Source: Okamejei kenojei (taxonomy: Eukaryota). From it: a stretch of DNA of 64,000 nucleotides. The notes below the pieces were generated by a model. It did no database searches. It was given only the letters and a program-made list of their open reading frames with translations, and had not been told where the DNA came from. A program made the translations under genes and the position numbers. Position 1 is the stretch's first letter. Each line of letters opens with the position of its first letter. Location of the stretch: contig CM069157.1 in the NCBI GenBank assembly GCA_035221665.1, positions 29,264,001 to 29,328,000 of the forward strand, in the 5' to 3' direction. Shown here one piece after another: positions 5,263-58,308 of the stretch.

Positions 5263-8200
5263 ATCATACTAGGAGTCAGGAACTGTCATCTGTCTCTTTA
5301 GTTTTAGCATTTTCTTTCTCCCATTCTATCTCTTGGATTCCCCTTTTTTCCTACCTTGATCTTTCCCTCCTGTTCTTTATGCCCTCTTCTTCCAAATCCA
5401 ATTTGCCGACATGGATGAGTTGGGCCAAAGAGTGTGATTCCATGCTCCGAATCCAAATCCCTCTGTAAACCTTTGAATACATCAGCTTGTTCCCACATGC
5501 TGTCTCTCATTCTCTTTGGTCCACTCCTCCCTCTCCCTTTTTCTTCTGTATCTCATTCCCCACCCCAAAGCTCCAAATTAAGAAGAGAGAAGTGATATTG
5601 AGGCCATATCTCAGTTCCAAGGATCTCATTGTAAGAATTCCTCTTGCCTATATTCTGGAGATAATTCTGAAGCTTCGGACTGTGGCATGGTGTCAATGTA
5701 GACAGACAAAAATAAACACAACAGATCACGGGCACAGCTCTGGGCATACAGGATAATGACAGTCTGAAATGATTTACCAGGTGGAGATGTTAGGAATTTA
5801 GACTTTGGGGAAATAGCAAAAGTTTTCAAATTACATTTGCCTCCACCCAGTAATTAACCTTTGTTCTCTTCTGGGAAGATTTATGTGGAGAGTTTTTTGT
5901 TTTCTCAACTCACAAGTTGGCAACCGGTAAAGACTGCGTTAGCTTACCTGGCTAAAGACTGTGACTTGGAGATGTTTAATTAATAACTGGAATGGAATTA
6001 CTGGGCACAAATTATTTTTAACCTACTCCCTGAGAAAGAAACCTCTGGTTGTAAATGAAACTTCAAAGTTCAAAACTCCTGTTACTCCTTTAACAGAGTA
6101 CAACTAAATTTTGATCGTGTGTCAGTTTTTAAAAGTATATATTACTATTGTTATATGTTTTATTAATTAAAAATTAAGTGTTGATAGAATGATTTCTACG
6201 TGGAAAAAAATAATATCCCAAATAAATATCACAAAAAATTCTGTCAAGGTACTTTCAGTAGGAGCATTAATTGGAGGTTTATTTTGAGTTCTTTAATGAA
6301 CACATTGAGCTGGTGTGATTTCTTTGAAGAACAAACAATGCAGCAGTGAGAGGCCACTTGGCTTTCATGTTTCAGTCTTTGAAAATGTTATCAAATCATT
6401 TCTTCTCCCTACTCATTGCTCGTAGCGCTCCAAATGGTTCCTGATCTTGGCAGACTTGCTTGTTTAAAAAAAAAAGTCCTCTCAAACTCTGTTTCCTGCA
6501 ATGAGACAGTGGACCATTTTTGTCTGAAATTCAAGAGATCTTGGGCGGAGCAGTGTAACACTCCCTCAAATGGAGGTTTACCAGATGCTGAACGAAAATG
6601 TTTGGTACTACATACAGAATTACCCAACGCGTCTATGTGTCATCTTTTTATTTTATCTAACCCAGGGTTAGATAAAATAAAGGAAAGGGAATTGAATGAC
6701 TGCAAATGCTAAACATTTAAGCTAAAACAAAATGCTGGAAGTAGCTTGGTCAGGAGAGAAAAACAGAATTAACATTTCAGTTTGATAACCTTTCATCAGG
6801 ACTGATAGACTAATACGATACACCTCTTTATTACTGCCATCCAGGGCCTCTGGTGCTATTTCCAGATATGAGAGAGAGATTTACTGGTACATTTGTGTTT
6901 GCTGTTCACAATGTGGTTAAATAATGAGCACTCTGCCTTCATTAAACATGTGACCCCAAATTGCAGATTTTCTGATGGCATAGTTTTACTGCTATGTGGA
7001 CTTTTTGCAATAAAAACTGAAGATACTGTCAATACTGCAGTGGGGAGAAACCAGAAGTGGAAAAGTGAGAAGGTTGTGTTTTAAGTGACAAAGTGGGTAG
7101 TTGGGGAGAGCAGGGGGATCAACTATGATACAGTAGAAACTTGGGTTGGCAGGGTGACAGGCACATGCTGTTGCTGTCCACTAAAATAGTGTGATGAAAG
7201 CTTGTTAATTAATCATAGCTGATCTGTCTGAGAGGTATAAATAGAGTGCTCTCTGCTCAGCCTGCTACATTGTTCCATTAAAGCACAATGCAAACTTCCC
7301 TCTTGTCTTCCCTCTCACATATCGGCTGCAACTTAAAACTTGTTCATTTCTATCATTCTTAACTTTTTTTTGTAAAATAAAAAGCCACCAGCAAGAGAAA
7401 TTAAGTCTGTCTCTTGCCGTCCTGAGATAATGTTGGCATATAGTATTTCCAGTATAATTTTAAACGTGCAAGCTCCTGTGCAAGGATCGAAGCACTGAAA
7501 AACTGGAAGCATTCGGCTGGTAAGGGGGTGTCTGTCGAAAGAGAAACTGATGAAAGGTCTCCCATCTGGACTGTTGATTCTACTTCTCTTTCCATAAATG
7601 CCTCCTGACATGCTGTATGTTTCCACGTCTTCTGTCTTTATTTCCAGTATTTTTGTTGTTGTTTGCTTGGCATTGCCCTCTTACACAGGTCAGCATATAC
7701 TTTTATATATCCGCCCAGGGTCACTATAGTATATGGACTTAGCTGTGACAGTAGGTTTATCCAGTGAGAGCTTATTTTCAGAACTCTTTATCCCACCACA
7801 CAACTGGAACCAGTAGTCCAGGATCAGTAAGTGTGAGAGTGTAGCTATTGTTACCAGTTTGTTAGTGTATACCTGGCTGGGCAGAAACCCGCCATCTGAG
7901 GCAGATTGCTAGAGCAGTATTGAATCAGGATTTTGGTATTAACAATATGTTGCCCATCAAATGTAGTGTTGCGCACTCCTAATGGTAAGATAGGCTCTGG
8001 GTCTGCTTTCACTTTCCGCAGCTCTTTGCCCCATCCCCATGTACCAGACAAAATCCTGGTTTAAGGAATACTCTTGGAAGATGGAAGCAGGACTTGTCAG
8101 CTCTGTTTCAGCTCTCTCCCAATTCTGGCTAGGATCTAGAAACCCAACTCCATACAGGCTCTCCCTATCTCTTCACATGTACAGTTCCCACTGGAAGCCC

Positions 8201-16728: not shown

Positions 16729-17900
16729 GTGCCCTCCATAATGTTTGGGACAAAGAAAAAAAAATTTATTTATTTTCCGCTGTATTCCACAATTTGAGAT
16801 TTGTAATTAAATTTGTGGTTAAAGTGCACATTGTCAGATTTTAATAAAGGCCATTTTTATACATTTTGGTTTCACCATGTAGAGATTACAGCTGTGATTA
16901 TACACAGTCCCTCCCCCCCCCCCCCCCCCCCCCCCCAATTTCAGGGCACAATAATGTTTGGGATACTGCAATGTCATGTGAATGAAAGTAGTCATGTTTA
17001 GTATTTTGTTGCATATCCTTTGCATGCAATGACTGCTTGAAGTCTGTGATTCATGGACGTCATCAGTTGCTGAGTGTTTTCTCTGGTAATGCTCTGCCAG
17101 GCCTGTATTGTAGCCATCTTTGGTTTATGCTTGTTTTGGGGGCCTTCAGTTTTCTCTTCAGCATATGAAAGGCATGCTCAATTGGGTTCAGATCGGGTGA
17201 TTCTTGGCCACTCAAGAATTGACCATTTTTTAGCTTTGAAAAACTCCTTTGTTGCCTTAGCAGTATGTTTGGGATCATTGTCTTGCTGTAGAATGAACTG
17301 CCGGCCAATGAGTTTCGAGACATTTATTTGAACTTGAGCAGATAGGATGTGTCTATAAACTTCAGAATTCATTATGCTACTACCATCAACAGTTGTATCA
17401 TCAATGAAGATAAGTGAGCCAGTACCTTCAGCAGCCATACATGCCCAGGCCATAACACCCCCACCACCGTGTTTCACCACGTCCCATCTGTCCACAAGAT
17501 CTTTTTCCAGAACTCTTTTAAGTACTTCTTGGCAAACTGTAACCTGGCCAGCCTATGTTTGCGGCTAACCAGTGGTTTTCATCTTGCAGTATAACCTCTG
17601 TCCTTCTGTTCATGAAGTCTTCTGCGGACAGCGGTCATTGACAAATCCACTCTTGAAGAATGTTTCTGATCTGTCGGACAGGTGTTTGGAGATTTTTCTT
17701 TATTATAGAGAGAATTCTTCTGTCATGAGCTGTGGAGGTCTTCCTTGGCCTGCCAGTCCCTTTGCGATTAGTAAGCTCACCAGTGCTCTCTTTCTTCTTA
17801 ATGATGTTCCAAACAGTTGGATTTTGGTAAGCCTAAGGTTTGGCTGATGTATCTAACAGTTTTATTCTTGTTTCTAAGTCTCATAATGGCTTATTTGATT
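16729..17900 (-). mobile_element. Second, truncated copy of the same Tc1 family
   Basis: One TIR (gtgccctccataatgtttgggacaaag); VKHGGGGVMAWACM...FILQQDNDPKHT and SPDLNPIEH in two frames. Confidence 0.92.
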
Positions 17901-22205: not shown

Positions 22206-22755
22206 GGGCAGAGCTGTTGACAATCAAACTAACTGATAAATTCCAGCGTCTGTGATAGGATGTTCAATAGTAAGATTAAACGAGAACTTACCAAGTTCGA
22301 AGGTTGATCTTTATTTTATGAGGAGTTGCGGTGAGGGATTTCATGCCCTCAGCTCCCACCCTCTATCATAAGATCAACTGGTATGTTCTTCGTTCTTAAT
22401 CTTACTATTTCCAGTCATGGCGCGTTCTGTGATTCCACACCGCTGCTTTGAAGAATGTCGCGCATGCGTGCTGGCGGGGTCTTCACGAAATCCCTCACCG
22501 CAACTCCTCATAAAATAAAGATCAACCTTCGAACTTGGTAAGTTCTCGTTTAATCTTACTATTTTATTTCGGAGTCACGTGAGTGACTTCGTGAAGATTT
22601 CAAAGCTCTGTGATTTCACGCCCTGGACATCGTCCATGCTATCACACTGCCACAATATTGATGGAGGAAGGCTGTTAATGCATTCCAGACTGAACAGGCT
22701 GAAAAATAATGCATATTTAGAACACAAATAATAACAAACAAAACCCCAAACTCGT

Positions 22756-23634
22756 TCACGGAGCGGCTCCCAGCACAGCTTCTGCGAACGTTGCGGGGGC
22801 GACCAGCGGTTTATTGTAGAACCACTGGAAGGTTGCTTCACTAGCCCTGCCCGCGGTGGCGAGGATGTGGTCCACAGGCACCTCAATGGCCCTCGCCGCT
22901 GATGTGGACGCAGCCCTGGTAGAGTGAGAATTAAAAATGTTAGTATCTACTCCTGCTGCACCCAACACCGCCCTGAGCCACCTTGCGATAGTCTGCACAG
23001 TGGGGTATGCCCAAAATTCCAACTGCAGCCCATGAGCCCCAGGTCTGTGCTGCTTCAGTAGGTCCTCTACAAAGAAAGTTACCTTAGCAGGGGGGAAGAC
23101 CATGCTATCCATCCGCAGCTTCTGTAAGGCCTGGACTCGTTGAGCTGTAGTCAGTGCCATCAGCATCACCACTTTGAGGGTGAGCTTATTGAGTGGTAAC
23201 TCTGTCATAGGGGACCAGCTCCTCAGTAGGGTCAGTACTATCCCTACGACCCAGGTGATGTTGTATCTGGGTCGTGGAGGGTTGGTGTTGAACACTCCCC
23301 TCATGAATTTGGGCACCAGGTGGTTTGAGCCTACACCTATGTCCAGGTATGAGGATAGTGCACTCCTGGCGCTGTTAATGCCACTGTAGCTGAGGCCCTC
23401 ATTATAATGAAGGCCCGCTAGGAATTCCAGGACATCAGAGATTGTGGCCGAGTTGTAGGTCGTGTTGGTACGTGAGCAGAATGCCTCCCACTTCCTGACC
23501 TGGGTGAGGTACTGCCTCCTGGTTGATGCTCGGCACAACGCTGAGATGAGGTCCATGGTTCTGGGTGATATGCCGGCCTTGACAAGCGGCGTCTTTAGGA
23601 CCTGCAAGCCAACAGGTGTAGGTGACAATGGCAC
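22756..23634 (-). pseudogene. DIRS tyrosine recombinase (phage integrase-like), apparently with an internal deletion
   Basis: SAM-like N-terminus (STRRQY...WEAFC...YSGINSARSALS), LTTAQRVQAL (catalytic R), HSTRAASTS (HxxR) and TFQWFYNKP (catalytic Y); the segment between FWAYP and TVQTIARWL looks too short. Confidence 0.88.
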
Positions 23635-23699
23635 GGGTGGCGTTCCCCCGTAATGGGGTTAGTAATCAATTTGGGGTTTTATCAATTTGGACCCACGGA

Positions 23700-24790
23700 C
23701 GTTTCAAGATTTGGAGGACCACCGGGTACCATGGCCGTGTAGGCCAGTCGGGTAGGATCAAGATGCCTGTAGCAGAATCCAGTTGAATTTTCTGAATACC
23801 CGACTGATGAGGCAGAATGGGGGAAATGCGTAGCTAAACCATTTCCCCCCAATGGAGAGATAAAGCATCCATAGCTACTGCCCCAGGGTCTGGTTCCCAA
23901 GACACATATGTTGGTATCTGATGGTTCAACCTGGACGCAAAGAGGTCTATATCCGGTGTACCAAAGTTAGCTATAATTTCAGCAAAAATTTGGGGGTTCA
24001 ACATCCACTCGATGTTATCATTGAACACTCGTGACCTGGTGTCTGCCACTGTATTGAGCTTCCCTGGTAAATAGGGCGCTGATCCAAATATTTCTCTCAA
24101 AGCACCAGTGCCAGATTGTGTTTGCCAATTCGTCACAAGATAATGACCTGATACCACCCATATGATTTATATAAGGCACCACCGTCGTGTTATCTATTTG
24201 TAGACGGACATGTAAATGCTGTGAGGTAGCGCAGTAAGCCCGCAGTCCATGGAAAGCCCCTAACATGTCCAGATAGTTTATCCCTTGGGTCTGGAGGAGG
24301 GTAGACTCGTGTGGGTCCCATCTGCCACCACAACGGATCATGAGGTTTGTGTCAATGGTGAAACCCAGGTAGTCCATAACTTGAGAGGGATTTAGTGTAG
24401 ATTTGTCTGGATGGGTCACAAACTCTAACGTCTCGAATAAAGATTTGGTCGCTGGAACTGTCAGCGTTGCCAATTGAAGGGTCTGTCCCACGATAAGGAT
24501 ATCGTCCAAATATGCCATGACGATATGCTGTTGTCGGAGGAGTGCCAAAATTGGTTTTACTAATTTGGTAAATAGTCTGGGCTGTGGTTAATCCAGTGGT
24601 TAAGGCATTGTATTGCCATAACTGTCCCTTCCAGACAAATTTTAGGAACTTCCTGTGAGATTCTAGGATGGGAACTGCATAGTACGCATCTTTTAAATCG
24701 ATGCAAGCCATAAAGTACCCCGGGTAAAGCAGCTGCTTAGCAGTTTCAAAGGTTTCCATTTTGAAATGGGTATATTGTACAAAAGTAGAA
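23700..24790 (-). pseudogene. DIRS pol: reverse transcriptase, RNase H and methyltransferase-like domain, frameshifted
   Basis: HFKMET...FMACIDLKDAYYAVPI, YLDDILI (RT); LQIDNTTVVPYINHMGG and YLPGKLNTVAD (RNase H); TPDIDLFASRLN and YAFPPF (MT), spread over several frames. Confidence 0.9.
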
Positions 24791-24999
24791 TAAATGTGTC
24801 TGTGGTTATTGCATCCCAAGCACCACGAAATGCCCGCAGCCGTCCTCCTACTTGTGAGGTTACTATTGCTACGCCCTGAGATGAACCAGACCCCCTTACC
24901 TCCATGGTCAACGGCGGTTCTTGGTGTATGGCGTTGTGGGGGGACGTGGTGTAGCTGTGGCCACATCTTCCATGCGGGCCTCTGCAGGCCTTGTCCTAA

Positions 25000-26800
25000 A
25001 AAAGGCCGCTGTTGTTGAGGAAGTGGAGGTGGATAGGTCCTTGATGGTCTATCCGGCTGGCGTGGTTTACAGGTAGGATACGGCTGTTGTCGTTGGTATG
25101 GGTAAACTTTAGCCGGTGGTGGTTTCATAAGGCCAACGGTCTTGGCCTCCCCGTCCATGTCTTTGACTTTTTTTCCCCCGAGATCATCCCCTGTACAGCT
25201 GATGAGGTGGTGGAGGTACGGCACAACCCTGCAAAGTTTGGGTGGAGCGTCGGCCGGATGGAGCTCTTACGGAGGCAGTTCATTTCGAACTGCGCATTGC
25301 AGAGAAGTGCCAGGGCATCCTGCTGCTCGCTGGGCACATCATCCCCATCGAGGGTCCTGGCAAATGCTGTAATGCCCGTCGATAGGAGTTTGAGGATACG
25401 CTGTAGGCGGACGTCCTGCATCTTGGTGGTAGCACTCAAATTCCCCCAAATTTGAGCATTCCCCGTGGGCACACTTATAGTGATGCAGTTGTCGGGCGGT
25501 TTGAATTCGTCCATGGTGTCAGTGACTACCTGACCCAGAAGCTGGTGAGTGGTCAGATAGTCAATGGTTCCCGCCAGTTTTCGGGCATAGCGGCAGTGTG
25601 GGTAGCTGTGGCAAATTTTCCCACGACGTCCAGCGGGTCCGCACCTAGGACTGGATCTACGGCCTCCGGCATCTCTGGTTCGACATCGAAGTCAGTATCC
25701 CGGCAGCTTCTGGTATTGCTGGCTGGAGAAGACGATGTGCTAGGCGGTCTCCTGGCATGACTTGTGGAGGCCTGAGACTGCTGTTCATCCCGGTCCATAT
25801 CCCGTTGGAGCAGTTGCTCCACCAAGCGCTCCAACCGGGCAATGCGACCGTCCCCGCTACTCGCGGCGGACAAGCCGACTTCCCAGGCTCTGCAATTTCT
25901 CCGGGGCTTCCACCAGCGGACCACACCCCCATCAGGCGTAGACTAGGGTCCAGTGGTAGGTCGCCGTGGGCAACTGCTCCTGCAGGCCCATACGACTCCC
26001 GCATGGACATTCCGCTAGTCAGCCTTCGAGCTGACTGCAGCGGTCCCCCTGCCTGGTAGGAAGGCAGTGGAGATAAGTCGGCGTCGGCCCCCGGTACCGG
26101 GCTCCCCGAAGTCCGTGCATGCTTACCTCCACTTCTGACATATATTTCCATGGAGATGCATGGTCGGCAGCTGCCAGAGCTAAGCTGGTCGAACGCCTAC
26201 TGCTGCCACCGGCGCCCTTGACTGCAGCCTGACGCGGCATTGTGTCGGCAGTACCTGCTCCTGCAGGGCTGCTCGGCACAGCGGTAGCTCTACCGGCCTG
26301 CCATACGGCAGATATCCCCGGCAGCTGTACGTGGCATGCCGCGGCTGCGGGGCTCCCTTGTAGCGGTACCCGGCTCGGCCCCCGTGGATCCTGGACCACA
26401 CGGGGTGATGCCGCCGTTGGTGTGCGAGGCACGTCCCCACGTACCTTGCTCCCCCTCGTCCTGGGAGATGGGGGAATGAGGTCAGGATCTGGGTTATCCT
26501 GCTCCAGTGCGGAAGTCCAGTCTGGAGATAAGCGGGACGCTGGTGTCACAGATTCGCCCAACTTCCGCACCTGTTCCCCCGGCCGTCCGGATGCTGCCGG
26601 TGGTTCTCGCAGCTCCGGGAAAGTGGTCGCTGGCCTGTCGGCGTCCCGCGGCTCTTGGGAAGTTATCCTTGCCCTTTCCCGTTGTCGTTGCCTTCCATCC
26701 TGCAACCAACGAAAGGTTAGTGTACTTACCTTGACTGCATTGTTGAAGGTGCTGTGGAGAGAGCGCACTCCCCCCCCCCCCCAGCTTGTCGAGAGCAAAT
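25000..26800 (-). pseudogene. DIRS gag-like ORF1 region, GC-rich, disrupted
   Basis: ORF 25125-25514 (PDNC...VP..NAQIW...QDVRLQRILKLL...DALALLCNAQFEMNCLRKSSIRP) resembles DIRS ORF1; lies upstream of RT. Confidence 0.65.
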
Positions 26801-26875
26801 GCATGTGACGATATGTCGCGCATGCGTGCTGGCGGGGTCTTCACGAAGTCACTCACGTGACTCCGAAATAAAATA

Positions 26876-40064: not shown

Positions 40065-41780
40065 TTTCCATTTACTGTGCAGGTCCTGCCCTTGTTAGAC
40101 ATCCCAAAATGCAACACCTCACACTTGTCTGTATTAAATTCCATCAACCATTCCTCCACCCACCTGGCCAATCGTCCAAATCCCGCTGCAATCGTTCACA
40201 ACCACCTTCACTATCTGCAAAAGCACTAACTTTTGTATCATCAGTAAACTTGCTAATCTTGCCCTGTATGTTCTCATCCAAATCATTGATGTAGATGACA
40301 AACAGTAACGAACCCTGAGGCACACCACTAGTCATAGGCCTCCATTCTGAGAAGCAACCTTCCACCATTACCCTCTGCTTCATTCCATGGAGCCAATTTG
40401 CTATCCATTCAGCTATCTCTCCTTGGATCCCATGCAATCTAACCTTCCAGGGCAGCCTACCATGCGAAACATTGTCGAACGCAACATGTACACAACATCT
40501 ACAGCTCTGCCTTCATCAATCTTTTTGGTCACGTCTTCAAAAAAATCTATCAGATTTGTGAGCCACAACCTCCCACGTACAAAACCATGCTGACTCCCCT
40601 AATCAGCCCTTACCCATCAAATGCCTGTATATCCTATTCTGGACATTATGGAGGGCACTGATATAGAAAACATCAGTGCCCTCCATAATGTTTGGGACAA
40701 AGATCCATCATTTATTTATTTGTCTCTGTATTGAGATTTGTAATAGAAAAAAATCACATGTGGGTAAAGTGCACATTGTTAGGTTATAATAAAGGCCATT
40801 TTAATACATTTTTCACTAACTGGGACGTACACATCCTGAGCTTTCTTTAGTGCACTTTTAAAAATATCCCACTTAGCCGATGTTCCTTTCCCATCTAATA
40901 ACCTGCTCCGGTCAACTTGCGAGCCCTTCTCTCATACCCTCAAAGTTGAACAATTTAACACGTGGACCAGCTCTGTTCCTATCAATAATTATCTTAAACA
41001 TAATCGAACTGTGGTCACTGGTCCAAAAAGGCTCCTCCACACACACTTCATTAACTTGCCATTCCCAATACTGGATCCAGCGTTGCCCTCTCGCATGTGA
41101 GGGCCTCCACATACTGCTTAAGAAAACGTTCCTGAACACTTTTGAGGAATTGCACCCCATCTGAACCCCTCACGCTATGATGTTCCAAGTCTATATTGGG
41201 AAAGTTAAAACCCCCTGCTACAACAACCTTATTTGACCTGCTATCTTCAGGCACATTTATTCTTCTAGTTACTGTTGACTATTTGGGAACTACACCCCCA
41301 ACAAAGTGATCATCCCTTTCTTGTTCCTCAACTCCACCCATACAACCTCACTAGACAAACCATCCATAATGTCATCTCTGAACACAGCTGTGACATCCTC
41401 CTTTACCAACAATGCAAACCCCCCTCCTCTTTTTCCCCGCGCGCCTGTCTCTCCTCAAGCTCCTGTACCCCGGAACATTGAGCTGCCAGTCCTGCCCCTC
41501 CCTTAACCAGGTTTCAGTCATGGCTACAATGTCCCAGTCTCTCGTACCTATCCATGCCCTAAGCTCATCTGCCTTACCTGTCAGACCCCTTGCATTAAAA
41601 TACGTACAGTTTAAACCAATCTCCTTCCTCGCTCTCTGCCTTTCACTTGCCTATTCTGCCCACTAACCTTTCCCACACCATCCTCCATACCAAGTTCTAG
41701 CCTCTCACGTGCTTCTGTCCTGCACGAGATCCCACCCCCCTGCCAATCTAGTTTAAACCCTCCCGTGTAGCATTAGCAAA
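40065..41780 (-). mobile_element. CR1-type LINE fragment (APE endonuclease and RT remnants)
   Basis: SGVPQGS..LFVIYINDLD..KISKFTDDTK; MEFNTDKCEVLHFG; VVVAGGFNFPNID; FLKQYV...LD. Confidence 0.9.
40643..40815. mobile_element. Tc1 TIR fragment with an inverted copy of the TIR tip, inside a CR1 fragment
   Basis: acattatggagggcactgat-N9-atcagtgccctccataatgtttgggacaaag, then TIR body. Confidence 0.85.
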
Positions 41781-46389: not shown

Positions 46390-47700
46390 GTCCTACTGAC
46401 TCTTCACCCAACACCCATGCCCAACCAAGATGCCTATCTAACCATTTACCTGCATTTGACCCATATCCCTTCAAAACATTTCCTGTCCACACAACCGTCC
46501 AACTGCCTTTTGATGTACATGCCTCAACCTACATAGTCTGGAAGGTCATTCCACATATGTACCACCTATGTGTGAAAGGGTTGCCCTTAAACCCCCATCC
46601 TTCTGGAATCCTATAGAATTGCTCCTCTCATCTTAAACCTATGTTCTTTAGTCAATGATTATCCAACCCTGGGAAAAGGGTGCATTCACTCCATCTATAT
46701 CCCTCATGATTCCTTACATCTCCCTAAGGTTACCGCACAGTCCCGTACACTCCAGGTTCTAGCCTGCCTAACCTCACCCCATAACACACTCCCTAACCCT
46801 ATAACTCAGTCCTTTAAGTTACTTAAAAGCACCTTTCTTATAGCAGGGTGACCAAAGCTAAAAGCAATACTCCCGTAGAGTCTCTCCAACGTCTTGTACA
46901 ACTGGAACACAACATCCTAACTTCTGTACTCGATGCTCTTACCAATGGCCAGCATGACGAACTTAGAGGGTGATAGATCGCTCTTAAGAAACTTGTGGAA
47001 TCTTAGCTTTGTCAGACTAGACAAAGGAAAATCCTATCTTGTCCTATTTTTCTCCAAAAATGTATTCTACATCTTTTGTACTTGTCCAAGGATTTGCTTG
47101 ACACCAGCTGCCGATGCTTGGTGAATGTCTTAGTTTTCTGACTAGCACTTTAACAAGGGTTAAAAGGGTTTAATCCATGTTGTCTCTGAGCTCTCCCAAT
47201 CACACCTTTATAAAAAATCTCCCAATTGCCAGACTTCCCTTTACCTGTGAAGAACATTTCCCAGTCAACCTATGCACGTTCCTGTCTCATGGCCCAGTTT
47301 AGGACTTGCTTTATGGACCAGACCTTTCTTTCTCCGTAACTATTTAAACGCTAATAGAATTTGGGGGTCACTGGTCCTAACATGTTCAGCTGCTGATGCT
47401 GCAGTTACATGCTCTGCCTCATTCCCAAGTTAGGAGGTCTAGTGTTGTGCCCTATCTAATAGAGCGCTATACATATTGTTTACAAAATCTTTCCTGGACA
47501 TATTTAAGAAATTCCAACCAGTTCAAGCCTTTGCAGTGTGAGATTCCCAGTCAATAAATTCACAATGTGCGGGAAGTTAAAATCACCTTTGACACTTTAT
47601 TTCTTACTGCCACCTGCGATCTCCCTACATATTTGCTCCTAATTTCTACTGACTTTTGGGGGGGGATCCTCATAATACAACCCTATCATTCCTACAGCTG
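46390..47700 (-). mobile_element. Decayed CR1-type LINE fragments
   Basis: Reverse-complement CR1 tail and body similar to other copies in the window. Confidence 0.6.
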
Positions 47701-48044
47701 TCTCGGGTCTCACTACATATGTTTAATGTGGATGAGGCTGAATCCCTTAACAGATTATGGTATTTATTAAGTGTTAATTAATGCTTGAGAAAACATGGGT
47801 TTAAAACAAAAGCGCTCAAAGTGCTGGAAAAAATCAGGCAATATTTCTGGAGAACAAAGACAGGTGATATTTTAGGTTGCGATCCTTCTTCAGTCTGAAA
47901 CATCACCTATTTATGTTTTCCAGAGATGCTGCTTGACCAACTGAGTTACTCCACCACTTTGTGTCCCACTTTTTAACCAACATCCACAGTTCTACATTGG
48001 GTCTAACAAAAAAACGTTTTAAATCTTTATGTAACTTTGAACAG

Positions 48045-48240
48045 GAAGCGCAAGAAAGCCAGGGCAAGGACCAGCTCTTCAAGCTCCTCATCTTCCTCCT
48101 CTTCCCCGGCGCACGAGCCAAAAGAAGAAAGAGAAGAGGGGGCAGGCCGGGAAGAACCCACTCCTGGCTTTAACAAAGCTCGCCTTGGGACAAGAGAATT
48201 CACCGGCCCACCGACTCGAGGCCGAGCACGTGGAGTTTTT
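48045..48240 (+). CDS. THRAP3: THRAP3 coding exon 8
   Basis: tttgaacag acceptor; KRKKARARTSSSSSS...GFNKARLGTREFTGPPTRGRARGVF; donor TTT|GTAAGC, phase 0. Confidence 0.95.
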
Positions 48241-49239
48241 GTAAGCAAACACTGAGCATTGATGGTGCCTTCTGCCGTCACATCTCTAGCATTAGGACTT
48301 CCTTGATTTCTAATTTTTGGACAAAATGGATGACTGCTTTTTGTAATATTCAGATTAAGCCACTGAGTTTGTGTTCAAATCTGGCCCAGAATCACCCAGT
48401 CTGATACTAAAGTGATTTGAGTTATTAACTCTTGTATAGAAATGTGATTAATGTACCTTTTTTTCTAGAGCCCAGGATTGGAGTTGAGTGTCTTCAAATG
48501 ATTCTGGTTGGAACCACCTCATCCTTGAATGGAAACAATTGCTTGTGGGCTTTGACCAAGTCCTAACTCTGTATTGACACTGTGGCACAGAGTTCCACAT
48601 TGATTTTTTGGGAATAGTGATCTTGGATATCAAGGTTAAGATGCTTCCATCCAGAGTTTCTATTTAATGCCCATGTCTGACCTCCAGCTTGCGTGATATT
48701 TGCTCCTAATTTATACAGAGAACCAAAGTAGAAACCCACAGTTGTTTAGCAATTAGAAGTGATACTTAGAGAGAGGGTTTTGGGGTGGTTTTACCCGTTG
48801 CCTTTTCTTTCTCTTTCTCACTCCCCCACCTCATTCTCCTATTCTCTCCTTTCCCCCACTCCGTATCTCATGGCAAAACAGTGCTTGAATGCATCTCTCC
48901 CTCTTTCTTTCCCCTCTGTCTCTCTCTCTTTCATTCCTTGCTCTCTTTTTTTCCTCTTTTTTCTCTTTCTCACTCTCACTCTCTCTCTCTCGACTAGACA
49001 GTGCTTAGGAATTCAGAGAATTGAGATGCTTTGCTGCATGAGGGCACTATCATAAAATGGCAGTGTTTGGGTGGAGTTGCATGACCAAGTTAGTGTGAGA
49101 AAGCCACCTCCACCCTGTCACCATGGTACATTGAGTCAGTTTCATCTCTGTCACTGGTACTTGCATCAAGATCTGAAAATGTAACCCGTTGAAGTTGAAT
49201 ACCTGTCCCAATCACGCCTTCCTTTTTATGCTAATGCAG

Positions 49240-49389
49240 CAGTTCAGAATAAGAGGAAGAGGATATGGCAGGGGAGCGTTTCCTGGTCCCAGCAATAGCA
49301 GTAACCCAGGTAACACAACCTTCCAAAAGCGACCCCGTGAAGAGGACTGGGATCCCGAGTACACGCCAAAAAGCAAAAAGTACTATCTG
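49240..49389 (+). CDS. THRAP3: THRAP3 coding exon 9 (150 nt, symmetric phase 0/0; CAGCAG acceptor)
   Basis: [16 protein letters not shown]...[23 protein letters not shown]; donor CTG|GTACGT. Confidence 0.96.
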
Positions 49390-50569
49390 GTACGTGTCCA
49401 CAAGCATCCAGGCTCAGGCCTGGGTCAGTGCCATGTTCAGTCTGTGCTGAGGGGATTTCAGACAATGTCCTAAGTAACATAGGGATAGGCAGGTGTCCAC
49501 CCCCCCTCCCCCCCCAAGAGCTCAGCAAGTTGAAACAGTGAGTGATTGATGTGCATAGAGTAGATGTGGCTGGTTTGTGTCTTTGTATTTAGAAGTGTTT
49601 TTGATGTCACTGCAAAATAGTTGAGTCCTGAATCGTAAGTTGTGCATACCGAGCTAATAGGGTGTAATGTAGGCTAAGGCTGTTTTGTAGTGACACCAGG
49701 AAGCACTTCTACCCTGGAAGTGTGATAACCTAGAGGCTAGTCGGAATCAGGGGGTCAATTAAAAGTTTCACAATCCAGATGGGCAAATCTTTGTCAGGCA
49801 AAGTTTATAATCCATGACTCACTCTGGATGGAAGCACTTTAATCTTGTACAGTTGCCATCAGGCAGTGACCCAATTTTTACCATATCATATTGGCCATAT
49901 GCTACAGGGTTTCATTTTGATGCTTGGTCTGCCTATCAAGGTTAAGATGCTTCTATCCAGAGTTTTGTGTTGGAAGTTCACCTCAGTATTAAAATGCCGA
50001 CCACTTGCCGATATAGCTGTTGCTGCAAATTTGTACAAACGTCTGTAATGGAAATATCTAACCTGTGGGTTGCCAGTGACACTGAGCAGCTTTGGGGAGA
50101 GGGTAAAGTACAAGCGTAACTGCTTAATAGGATTTAATAATTTATCACTAATCCAAGCAAGTCATTTTTTTTCCCATGCTGGGAGGGAGAGTTAAGCAAA
50201 ATCTAATTGGTGTGTTAGTTTGGTGGGGGTTAATGGATTATCCTGTTGCTTAGAGAGTAATTGGGCCTCATTTTATGTCATTTGTCTTTCCACCCTACCT
50301 GGGGAATGCAAAGGTGACTTGTGTCCTCATGACGTGTAGCCAAAAGAACACAGATTTGTGGGAGCTAATTGGTAGAGGCACTGACTAAAGCTGAAGCAGA
50401 CTTCGAATATAATTGGCAAGAGCCATTAAATTTACAGCAGTGATCATTTAATAGTAAATACCGGCTTCTGTTACAGTATCAAACCAGCGTCCTCTGTCAT
50501 GCCCGTTAGTTTGATTCCCTGTGTTCCTGCTTCCTTATGGAAACTCATTTTGTCTGTTGACGCAAAAGT

Positions 50570-51100
50570 TCAAACTGAGGGAAGAACTCGGGAAGAACAT
50601 GCAGCATCCATGGAAGAAAATGAACAGATGACATTTCGGGTCAGGACCCTTCGCCAAAACTAGAGTAGAGTGGATTTAGCTGGTAGTTAATTGCGAGGGA
50701 AATGGGGTGGGGCATGTGCTGAAAGTGATAGGTAGGTGGGAAGGGGGACATGAAGTGGGAGGGGTGGGTGATGAGTAGAAGGAGGTGAAGAAGTTAACAC
50801 GGTAGTGGAAAGAAGGGTGTGAGCGAGAGGGCCTGGGTAGATCAGAAGAAAAGAGGATTATCTGAAATTAGAGAATTCAGTGCTTATGCTATTACATGTT
50901 AGCTACCCAAGCGGAATACGAGGTACTCTGGCAATGGTGGCCGGTGACAGACTGGTCCGTGAGCGAATGGGAAGGAGAAATAAAATGCATTGTAACTGGG
51001 AGCTCCATCTAGTCTCGGCAGTCAACGCGCAAATGTTTGGCGAAGCCGTCGCCAAGTCTACTGTTGGTCTCACTGACATATAGGCAGCCACTGGGCGCAC
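50570..51100 (-). mobile_element. Penelope-like element 3' part (GIY-YIG remnant, pyrimidine-rich UTR, terminal repeat with decayed hammerhead-like motif)
   Basis: - strand reads CLYVSETNSRLGDGFAKHLR; downstream gaagggtcctgacccgaaatgtcatc. Confidence 0.75.
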
Positions 51101-51886: not shown

Positions 51887-52132
51887 CATGATGACCGTGA
51901 GGGAGAAGGAGACAACTACTGGGCAAACAAAAGGGGTCGCGGAGCTTTCCAGCGAGGCAGAGGTCGTTTCCTGTACAAAAAGTCCAACACCAGCCCCAAG
52001 TGGACACATGACAAGTATCAAGGCAGCGGACAGGAAGGCGTGGAGGAGGAAGAGGAAGAGGAGGAGGAGGATGGGCAAATTGCTGGCATCGCCACCCAGG
52101 AAGAGAAAAATATGGGTGCGTTGGAACAGTAG
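51887..52132 (+). CDS. THRAP3: THRAP3 last coding exon
   Basis: Long pyrimidine tract + ctgcag; [48 protein letters not shown]...ALEQ*; TAG at 52130-52132. Confidence 0.95.
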
Positions 52133-56792: not shown

Positions 56793-58308
56793 CAGTGCCC
56801 TCCATAATGTTTGCGACAAAGAACCATCATTTATTTATTGGTCTCTGTACTCCACAATTTGAGAATTGTAATAGAAAAAAATCACTTGTGGGTAAAGTGC
56901 ACATTGTAATAAATGCCATTTTTATATATTTTGGTTTCACCATGTAGAAATTACAGCCGTGTTTATACATAGTCCCCCTATTTCAGGGCACCATAATGTG
57001 TGGGACACAGCAATGTCATGTAAATGAAAGTACTCATGTTTAGTATTTGGTTGCATATTCTTTGTTTGGGATCATTGTCTTGCTGTAGAATGAACTGCTG
57101 GCCAATGAGTTTTGAGGCATTTGTTTCACTTCAGAATTCATTATGCTACTACCATCAGCAGTTGTATTTTCAATGAAGATAAGTGAGCCAGTACCTTCAG
57201 CAACCATACAAGCCCAGGCCATAACACCCCCATCACTGTGTTTCGCACATGAGGTGGTATGCTTTAGATCTTGGGCAGTTCTTTCCCTCCTCCATACTTT
57301 GCTCTTGCCATCACTCTGATATAAGTTAATCTCCGTCTCATCTGTCCACAAGACCTTTTTCCAAAACTTTGGTTGCTCTTTTAAATACTTCTTGGCAAAC
57401 TGTAACCTGACCATCCTATTTTTGCGGCTATCCAGTGGTTTACACATCTTGCAGTGTAGCCATAAACCATATAACAATTACAGCACGGAAACAGGCCCTC
57501 TCGGCCCTTCCAGTCCGTGCCGACCATTTGTTTTCCCCTAGTCCTACCTGCACTCAGACCATACCCCTCCATTCCCTTCCCTTCCATACACCTATCCACT
57601 GTAGCCTCTATTTCTGTTCATTAAGTCTTGTGCGGACAGTGGTCTTTGACAAATCCACTCCTGAAGAGTGTTTCTGATCTATCTGACGTCTTTAGGGATT
57701 TTTCTTTATTACAGAGAGAATTCTGTCATCCGCTGTGGAGGTCTTCCTTGGCCTGTCAGTCCCTTTGCAATTAGTAAGCTCTTTCTTCTTAATGATGTTC
57801 CAAACCTTTTTTATTATTATTTGATTTTGGTACGTCTAAGGTTTGGCTGATGTCTCTAACAATTTTATTCTTGTTTCGCGTAATGACTTCTTTGACTTTC
57901 ATTGGCACAACTTTGGTCCTCTTGTTGATAAACAGCAATAAAAGTTTCCAAAGGTGATGTAGAGACTAGGTGCTGAGAGCTCTCTTATCCCTGCATTAAG
58001 GAGGCAATTAAACACACCTGAGCAATGACAAACACCTGTGAAGCCATGTGTCCCGAACATTATCTTGCCCTGAAATGGGGGACTATGTATAAACACTGCT
58101 GGAATTTCTACATGGTGAAACCAAAATGTATAAAAATACCCTTTAATAAATGGTGAAACCAAAATGTATAAAAATACCCTTTAATAAAATCTGACAATGT
58201 GCACTTTATTTTTTTTGTATAATATGTGATTTTTTTTCTATTACAAATCTCAAATTGTGAGGTATAGAGGCAAATAAATATTTGTCCCAAACATTATGGA
58301 GGGCACTG
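56793..58308 (-). mobile_element. Tc1-like (DD34E, IR/DR type) DNA transposon, defective
   Basis: TA|CAGTGCCCTCCATAATGTTTG...CAAACATTATGGAGGGCACTG|TA; ~200+ bp TIRs with inner direct repeats; transposase remnants WKKVLWTDETEINL and GGVMAWACM; 38-bp tandem duplication at 58113-58188. Confidence 0.93.

Follow-up and report, generated by a model that had tools for sequence, protein, structure and literature searches.

A duplicated intronic hairpin around an optional THRAP3 exon in Okamejei kenojei: candidate competing pairings that may tune exon skipping

Introduction

Competing RNA structures in splicing have so far been described mostly from clusters of mutually exclusive exons. The introns on either side of a 150-nt coding exon of THRAP3 in Okamejei kenojei raise the question of whether the same principle can act on a plain cassette exon, and of how such an arrangement could come about. 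The window, a stretch of 64,000 nucleotides (contig CM069157.1, positions 29,264,001 to 29,328,000 of the forward strand; coordinates below count from its first letter, and the exons, boxes and units lie on its plus strand), holds two near-identical boxes, A upstream of the exon and C downstream, that are both complementary to a third box, B. The initial annotation, made from the letters of the window, proposed that A:B pairing loops the exon out while B:C pairing frees it. What follows considers the exon, the boxes, their origin, and the explanations that compete for them.

An optional exon of THRAP3

By similarity, the locus is the THRAP3 orthologue, as had been proposed. Its last coding exon (51887..52132; 81 amino acids plus stop) is 83-89% identical to its best 21 protein matches, 19 of which are named THRAP3, from sharks, and the locus also matches PF15440. 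A BCLAF1-type last exon lies at a second locus, on contig C5 of the same genome; the assignment is one by closest named proteins plus a separate paralog locus. The upstream exon (48045..48240) is bounded by the joint 46236>48043 (cut +2), and its donor is joined either to the cassette exon (49240..49389) or to the last exon. The 150 nt of the cassette exon encode 50 amino acids and preserve the frame, so that the inclusion and skip products are both in frame and differ by a 50-aa RG-rich segment. The exon carries a tandem AG acceptor (NAG-CAG) both in THRAP3 (49237-49242, where the letters are CAG-CAG) and in the BCLAF1 paralog (locus L004, 1498-1503), and annotated proteins are known both with and without its first Gln.

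The predicted skipping junction is present in RNA. The joint 48240>51887, with GT..AG ends, occurs in assembled contigs of all four of the four runs that bear on it (4 studies, 3 organism labels), and the inclusion joint 49389>51887 in three of these and in a fifth run (X8). Contig depths for skip versus include are 93.5 vs 41.1, 1006.7 vs 663.8, 32.5 vs 16.7, and 331 vs none listed; crude as these figures are, skipping is not a rare form. No run is recorded as RNA, and X6, X7, X8, X17 and X18 were treated as such because their contigs join exons, although a retrocopy could in principle give contigs of this kind. The joint 48240>49240 is not among the 15 of 67 joints listed; an exon-alone contig, with 28 extra upstream letters, was seen in X18 only. 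Exon 49240-49389 is a cassette exon.

It appears to have been one for a long time. Among 120 listed proteins, 10 of 29 THRAP3 and 35 of 91 BCLAF1 sequences lack the exon, as do 3 of 38 cluster members (a count that leaves out 4 of 42 members, those lacking the last-exon motif), and THRAP3 skip forms are annotated, as predicted models, in 7 shark species, gar and a caecilian. In human, BCLAF1 exon 11 is skipped upon CLK inhibition (PMC5991599) and SF3A3 knockdown affects a 147-nt exon of BCLAF1 (PMC8052449, supplement), which, with the protein counts, bears out the statement in the initial annotation that BCLAF1 has a cassette exon at the homologous place. The BCLAF1 introns of the same genome contain no comparable pair of boxes, their best duplex reaching -26.5 vs -40.5 kcal/mol in THRAP3. 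Given that annotated skip isoforms extend over the jawed vertebrates and include the paralog, which lacks the boxes, the boxes at most modulate skipping; the notion that they are needed for it finds no support, and the exon was in all probability already optional before they arose.

Three boxes and one shared partner

Box A (48628..48659) and box C (49934..49965) are identical at 31 of 32 positions, and box B (49821..49847) is complementary to both through the same 27 nt. A:B comprises 24 Watson-Crick pairs, 2 G-U pairs and one A-C mismatch, and C:B 23 Watson-Crick pairs, 3 G-U pairs and one mismatch, the sole difference between A and C leaving the pairing intact at the cost of a Watson-Crick pair turned into G-U; in all this the initial annotation was accurate. 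The predicted duplex energies are -40.5 (A:B) and -38.2 kcal/mol (C:B). A:B is the best duplex of 2784 window pairs, and the B..C hairpin folds with z = -3.65, none of 200 shuffles being equally stable. An A:B helix would close a loop of 1163 nt with the cassette exon inside it, and the B:C hairpin leaves the exon outside its loop. The two are mutually exclusive and close in predicted energy: enforced folds over 48440-50020 give -453.0 vs -450.3 kcal/mol, a gap of 2.7 kcal/mol, in a setting of 1-kb loops for which energy models are poor. B begins 432 nt downstream of the cassette exon donor and A lies 581 nt from the nearest splice site of that exon, so no splice site is directly masked.

Each helix had also been credited with an extension of its own. 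The letters are there, but they do not rise above chance: the inner extension of A:B is equalled or beaten by 223 of 1000 shuffles and that of B:C by 390 of 1000. Further, G>A at 49931 in three related organisms breaks a pair of the B:C extension.

The boxes do not belong to a high-copy repeat. In the window the 27-mer, at up to 3 mismatches, occurs at only these three places, and none of 100 shuffles contained any match; with up to 2 mismatches, the 32-mer occurs in the whole 2.76-Gb genome only as A and C; and a 22-mer has, besides A and C, a single match with 2 mismatches on a different contig. Metagenome searches for the boxes returned 0 matches. In Rfam the best hit scored 18.1 bits against a gathering score of 65, with no miRNA or snoRNA family near threshold, and identity with either class was rejected on that ground.

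An old hairpin duplicate and its decayed arm

What the initial annotation did not contain is a fourth box and an old duplication. The downstream hairpin region, unit 2 (49816..50086; B, an 89-nt spacer, C and flank, delimited by profile search), has a direct duplicate upstream of the exon, unit 1 (48496..48770; B', loop, A and flank), which nhmmer aligns to it with an E-value of about 1e-12 at 63% identity over 311 columns. A and C also have similar flanks, a likeness that none of 300 shuffles equalled on either side, and the homology continues about 120 nt beyond C. The order of elements is thus B'-loop-A, exon, B-loop-C. Box B' (48501..48527) is a decayed copy of B, identical to it at 20 of 27 positions, and its duplex with A is predicted at -27.8 kcal/mol with 6 mismatches; unit 1 folds with z = -1.32. 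No copy of the cassette exon was found in either flanking intron, and the homology of the duplicated unit reaches no exon. An entire intronic hairpin was copied, and the redundant arm B' then decayed.

In 710 kb of sampled genome the unit profile had no further match (best E 6.9), nor did a whole-genome DNA search, which is insensitive to old copies, yield one. An origin of the boxes as a transposon terminal inverted repeat (TIR) or other old repeat was accordingly rejected, the boxes being single-copy and the unit without other copies; very old low-copy families could escape such searches.

The surroundings contain several repeats in their own right. An old interspersed LINE-like repeat lies at 47040-47740 and 40800-41600, its copies 65-75% identical; the family has at least 40 scored copies and 22 matches in the 710 kb, a 24-sequence profile of it has no match on unit 1 or unit 2, and the reverse strand of one copy reads like what we take to be a LINE endonuclease. 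A 22/24 direct repeat, unique in the genome, joins 47629-47652, inside the LINE-like fragment, to 48696-48719, in the flank of unit 1, and may be chance or a short templated copy. About 2.5 kb at 48000-50570 is free of interspersed repeats as judged against the sampled genomic DNA, unlike the neighbouring introns. On the minus strand, 22266-26840 contains open frames and an 80-nt inverted repeat, 99% identical, at 22266-22563; the frames resemble a tyrosine recombinase, RT/RNase H and gag and presumably belong to a DIRS-type retrotransposon. Fragments with long inverted repeats at 16820-17552 and 56832-58280 are presumably pieces of Tc1/mariner-like transposases.

Selection, conversion and other explanations

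Within the duplicate, A and C form an island of identity. They differ at 1 of 32 positions, whereas B', loop and flank differ at 77 of 181 aligned columns (Fisher p = 4e-6); the simulated chance of any such 32-column window is 3e-5, and the identity stops within 2-3 nt of both ends of the stretch complementary to B. B' permits the direction of change to be read. With B' as reference, 2 of the 27 sites of B have changed, each by C>U and each to a G-U pair; since B' has C at both G-U sites of B, B most simply underwent C>U twice with pairing kept. The sole difference between A and C is likewise C/U opposite G. B' has changed at 5 sites, 4 of them pair-breaking, which matches the neutral rate; it was therefore not B' that kept A constant. 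That A and C were corrected from B was considered and rejected, as the A-C mismatch is common to B'. Taken together, the island speaks either for selection on A:B as well as B:C or for a recent conversion between C and A, and the decayed arm with the old duplication is probably the best evidence for selection.

Related organisms add little resolution at their distance. Of the 25 substitutions or indels listed for related runs, none falls in A, B or C (P = 0.036, an optimistic figure, as the relatives are only about 2% apart, organisms labelled C, D and E share most differences and count as about one lineage, and differences within about 30 nt of piece ends, which take in the last 5 bases of box C and, in one run, the first bases of A, are unlisted). 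Among these relatives, about 2% apart, no compensatory change was seen. The same three organisms have an 11-nt insertion at 49726, 95 nt upstream of B.

Were a single helix selected, most simply B:C, the other arm would have to have been overwritten from its paralogous arm by a short gene conversion or template switch shortly before the species split, and the second pairing would be a by-product. A difference of 1 in 32 (3%) is indeed about the divergence among the sampled species, the arms would have been the most similar part of the duplicate and hence the likeliest seed, and skipping is ancestral and happens without the boxes. However, the converted tract must then fit a helix arm to within 2-3 nt at both ends, in surroundings about 57% identical and across 1.3 kb. 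In 76 other 10-kb stretches, nine local direct repeats were found, of which eight have an even 79-91% identity and the ninth is an isolated 34-mer, and an identity island inside a duplicate of about 60% identity occurs in none of them (0/9); as the scan relies on an exact 10-nt seed and failed to pick up even B:C, its count is an underestimate. One other direct-plus-inverted triple turned up in it, built of TIR-like arms. Even a converted A would leave A:B a predicted helix of -40.5 kcal/mol. Such an overwriting is judged unlikely; if A is nonetheless a conversion product, the locus would be a modest curiosity beside a conserved intronic hairpin. It is a good deal less probable still that A and C were kept for their primary sequence, as a protein site or as the active strand of a small RNA with B as star arm. 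Their likeness does exceed what pairing calls for, and drift is greater in the partner arms B and B', as it is in the star arms of paralogous miRNA precursors relative to the active arms. Against this, no Rfam match comes near any threshold, the 89-nt spacer and the 32-nt conserved length are unlike animal pre-miRNAs and misfit such a precursor, and the decay of B' is compatible with neutrality, which implies that unit 1 (z = -1.32) was not kept as one.

Both helices might likewise be selected for another output, namely back-splicing of the 150-nt exon or an effect on intron removal or editing. Complementary sequences flanking an exon are described as promoting back-splicing (PMC10790352), and the geometry here is suitable for it. 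The contigs, however, show linear skipping. No back-splice joint was found among the 15 of 67 joints listed or in the related runs (in which two repeat joints were dropped), and no A>G at 48641 or 49947 is listed among the differences of the related runs; contigs drop rare forms, and therefore neither absence counts either way. The A-C mismatch had been called a typical ADAR context, a description that finds no support, as the mismatched A sits in G-A-U and a 5' G neighbour is disfavoured by ADAR, which also speaks against editing. Outputs of this kind are held to be very improbable.

How competing pairings might act

Single-copy boxes, a duplicated hairpin with a decayed B', near-identity of A and C, and exon skipping in RNA contigs are what the locus presents. 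The reading preferred here, and thought on balance somewhat more probable than its negation, is that a hairpin was duplicated across an already optional exon and that the surviving arm A competes with C for B, thereby tuning skipping. Selection would have kept A and C both complementary to B. A is transcribed first and is predicted to have no strong partner until B appears; in folds of successively longer prefixes, the centre of A stays unpaired until B is made and then pairs with B. C is made 89 nt after B and lies closer to it, and A:B would thus form in the short interval before C appears. Once formed, A:B would enclose the exon with its two splice sites in a loop of 1.16 kb and favour the joint 48240>51887, while B:C would sequester B and favour inclusion; elongation speed or RNA-binding proteins could shift the ratio of the two. 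Pairing would in this way alter the splicing outcome. In human data, exons that paired conserved complementary regions loop out have a lower mean inclusion (PMC8052449). The fuller proposition, of a two-state switch at one coding cassette exon, with a traceable origin in whole-hairpin duplication, kept through deep cartilaginous-fish evolution and setting the THRAP3 isoform ratio, is a tentative one and rather doubtful as a whole.

Relation to known systems

The nearest precedent for near-balanced competition is human ATE1. As described in PMC7797038, its R1R3 and R3R4 structures are of nearly equal energy, one long-range and one local, with two elements competing for one partner as A and C would for B; an origin by arm duplication is proposed there, although the origin of R1, R3 and R4 is untraceable. 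ATE1, however, has two mutually exclusive duplicated exons and elements that overlap polypyrimidine tracts (PMC7797038), whereas THRAP3 has one cassette exon, boxes more than 400 nt from its splice sites, and an origin that can be traced. The locus likewise resembles the docking-site/selector model of Ivanov and Pervouchine, in which, according to PMC6071210, duplication of an intronic stem-loop yields two selectors for one docking site; A and C do share the single partner B. That model duplicates an exon together with one arm (PMC6071210), and in THRAP3 the whole hairpin was duplicated, with no detectable exon copy and with B' decaying afterwards. Because there is no cluster of mutually exclusive duplicated exons, the THRAP3 arrangement falls outside the strict docking/selector class of Dscam and ATE1.

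Its outcome is closer to that of single-exon loop-outs. BRD2 exon 3b (PMC10789245) is an alternative exon of a gene-expression regulator with complementary boxes in both flanking introns, and THRAP3 has the corresponding features, a stable predicted pair between the flanking introns (-40.5 kcal/mol) and an enclosed exon that is skipped (4/4 runs). The BRD2 exon is a poison exon for which the abstract names a single pair, whereas the THRAP3 exon codes for protein, preserves the frame and has a third box as putative competitor; by analogy, then, THRAP3 would be a single-exon loop-out plus a competitor. Triples of MITE TIRs also give this direct-plus-inverted layout within about 1 kb, as at 7144-8073 of locus L088 in the same genome, but that cluster has at least 5 TIR-like arm copies and is a mobile-element insertion, while the THRAP3 boxes are single-copy and their homology runs about 120 nt past C. 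In the literature covered, which takes in few subscription papers, no title deals with RNA structure at this exon of THRAP3, and THRAP3 is absent from the main text and 5 supplements of PMC8052449, the full catalogue of pairs possibly lying elsewhere.

If the pairing does tune the exon, the docking/selector principle would extend to a plain cassette exon in a small and directly testable model, and one lineage would have brought under the control of RNA structure an exon that was optional in jawed vertebrates beforehand. Set beside ATE1, Dscam and BRD2, the distinctive point is an origin that can still be read, whole-hairpin duplication followed by loss of the redundant arm, at a locus where the entire record survives: the two copies, the arm that decayed, and the direction in which B has changed.
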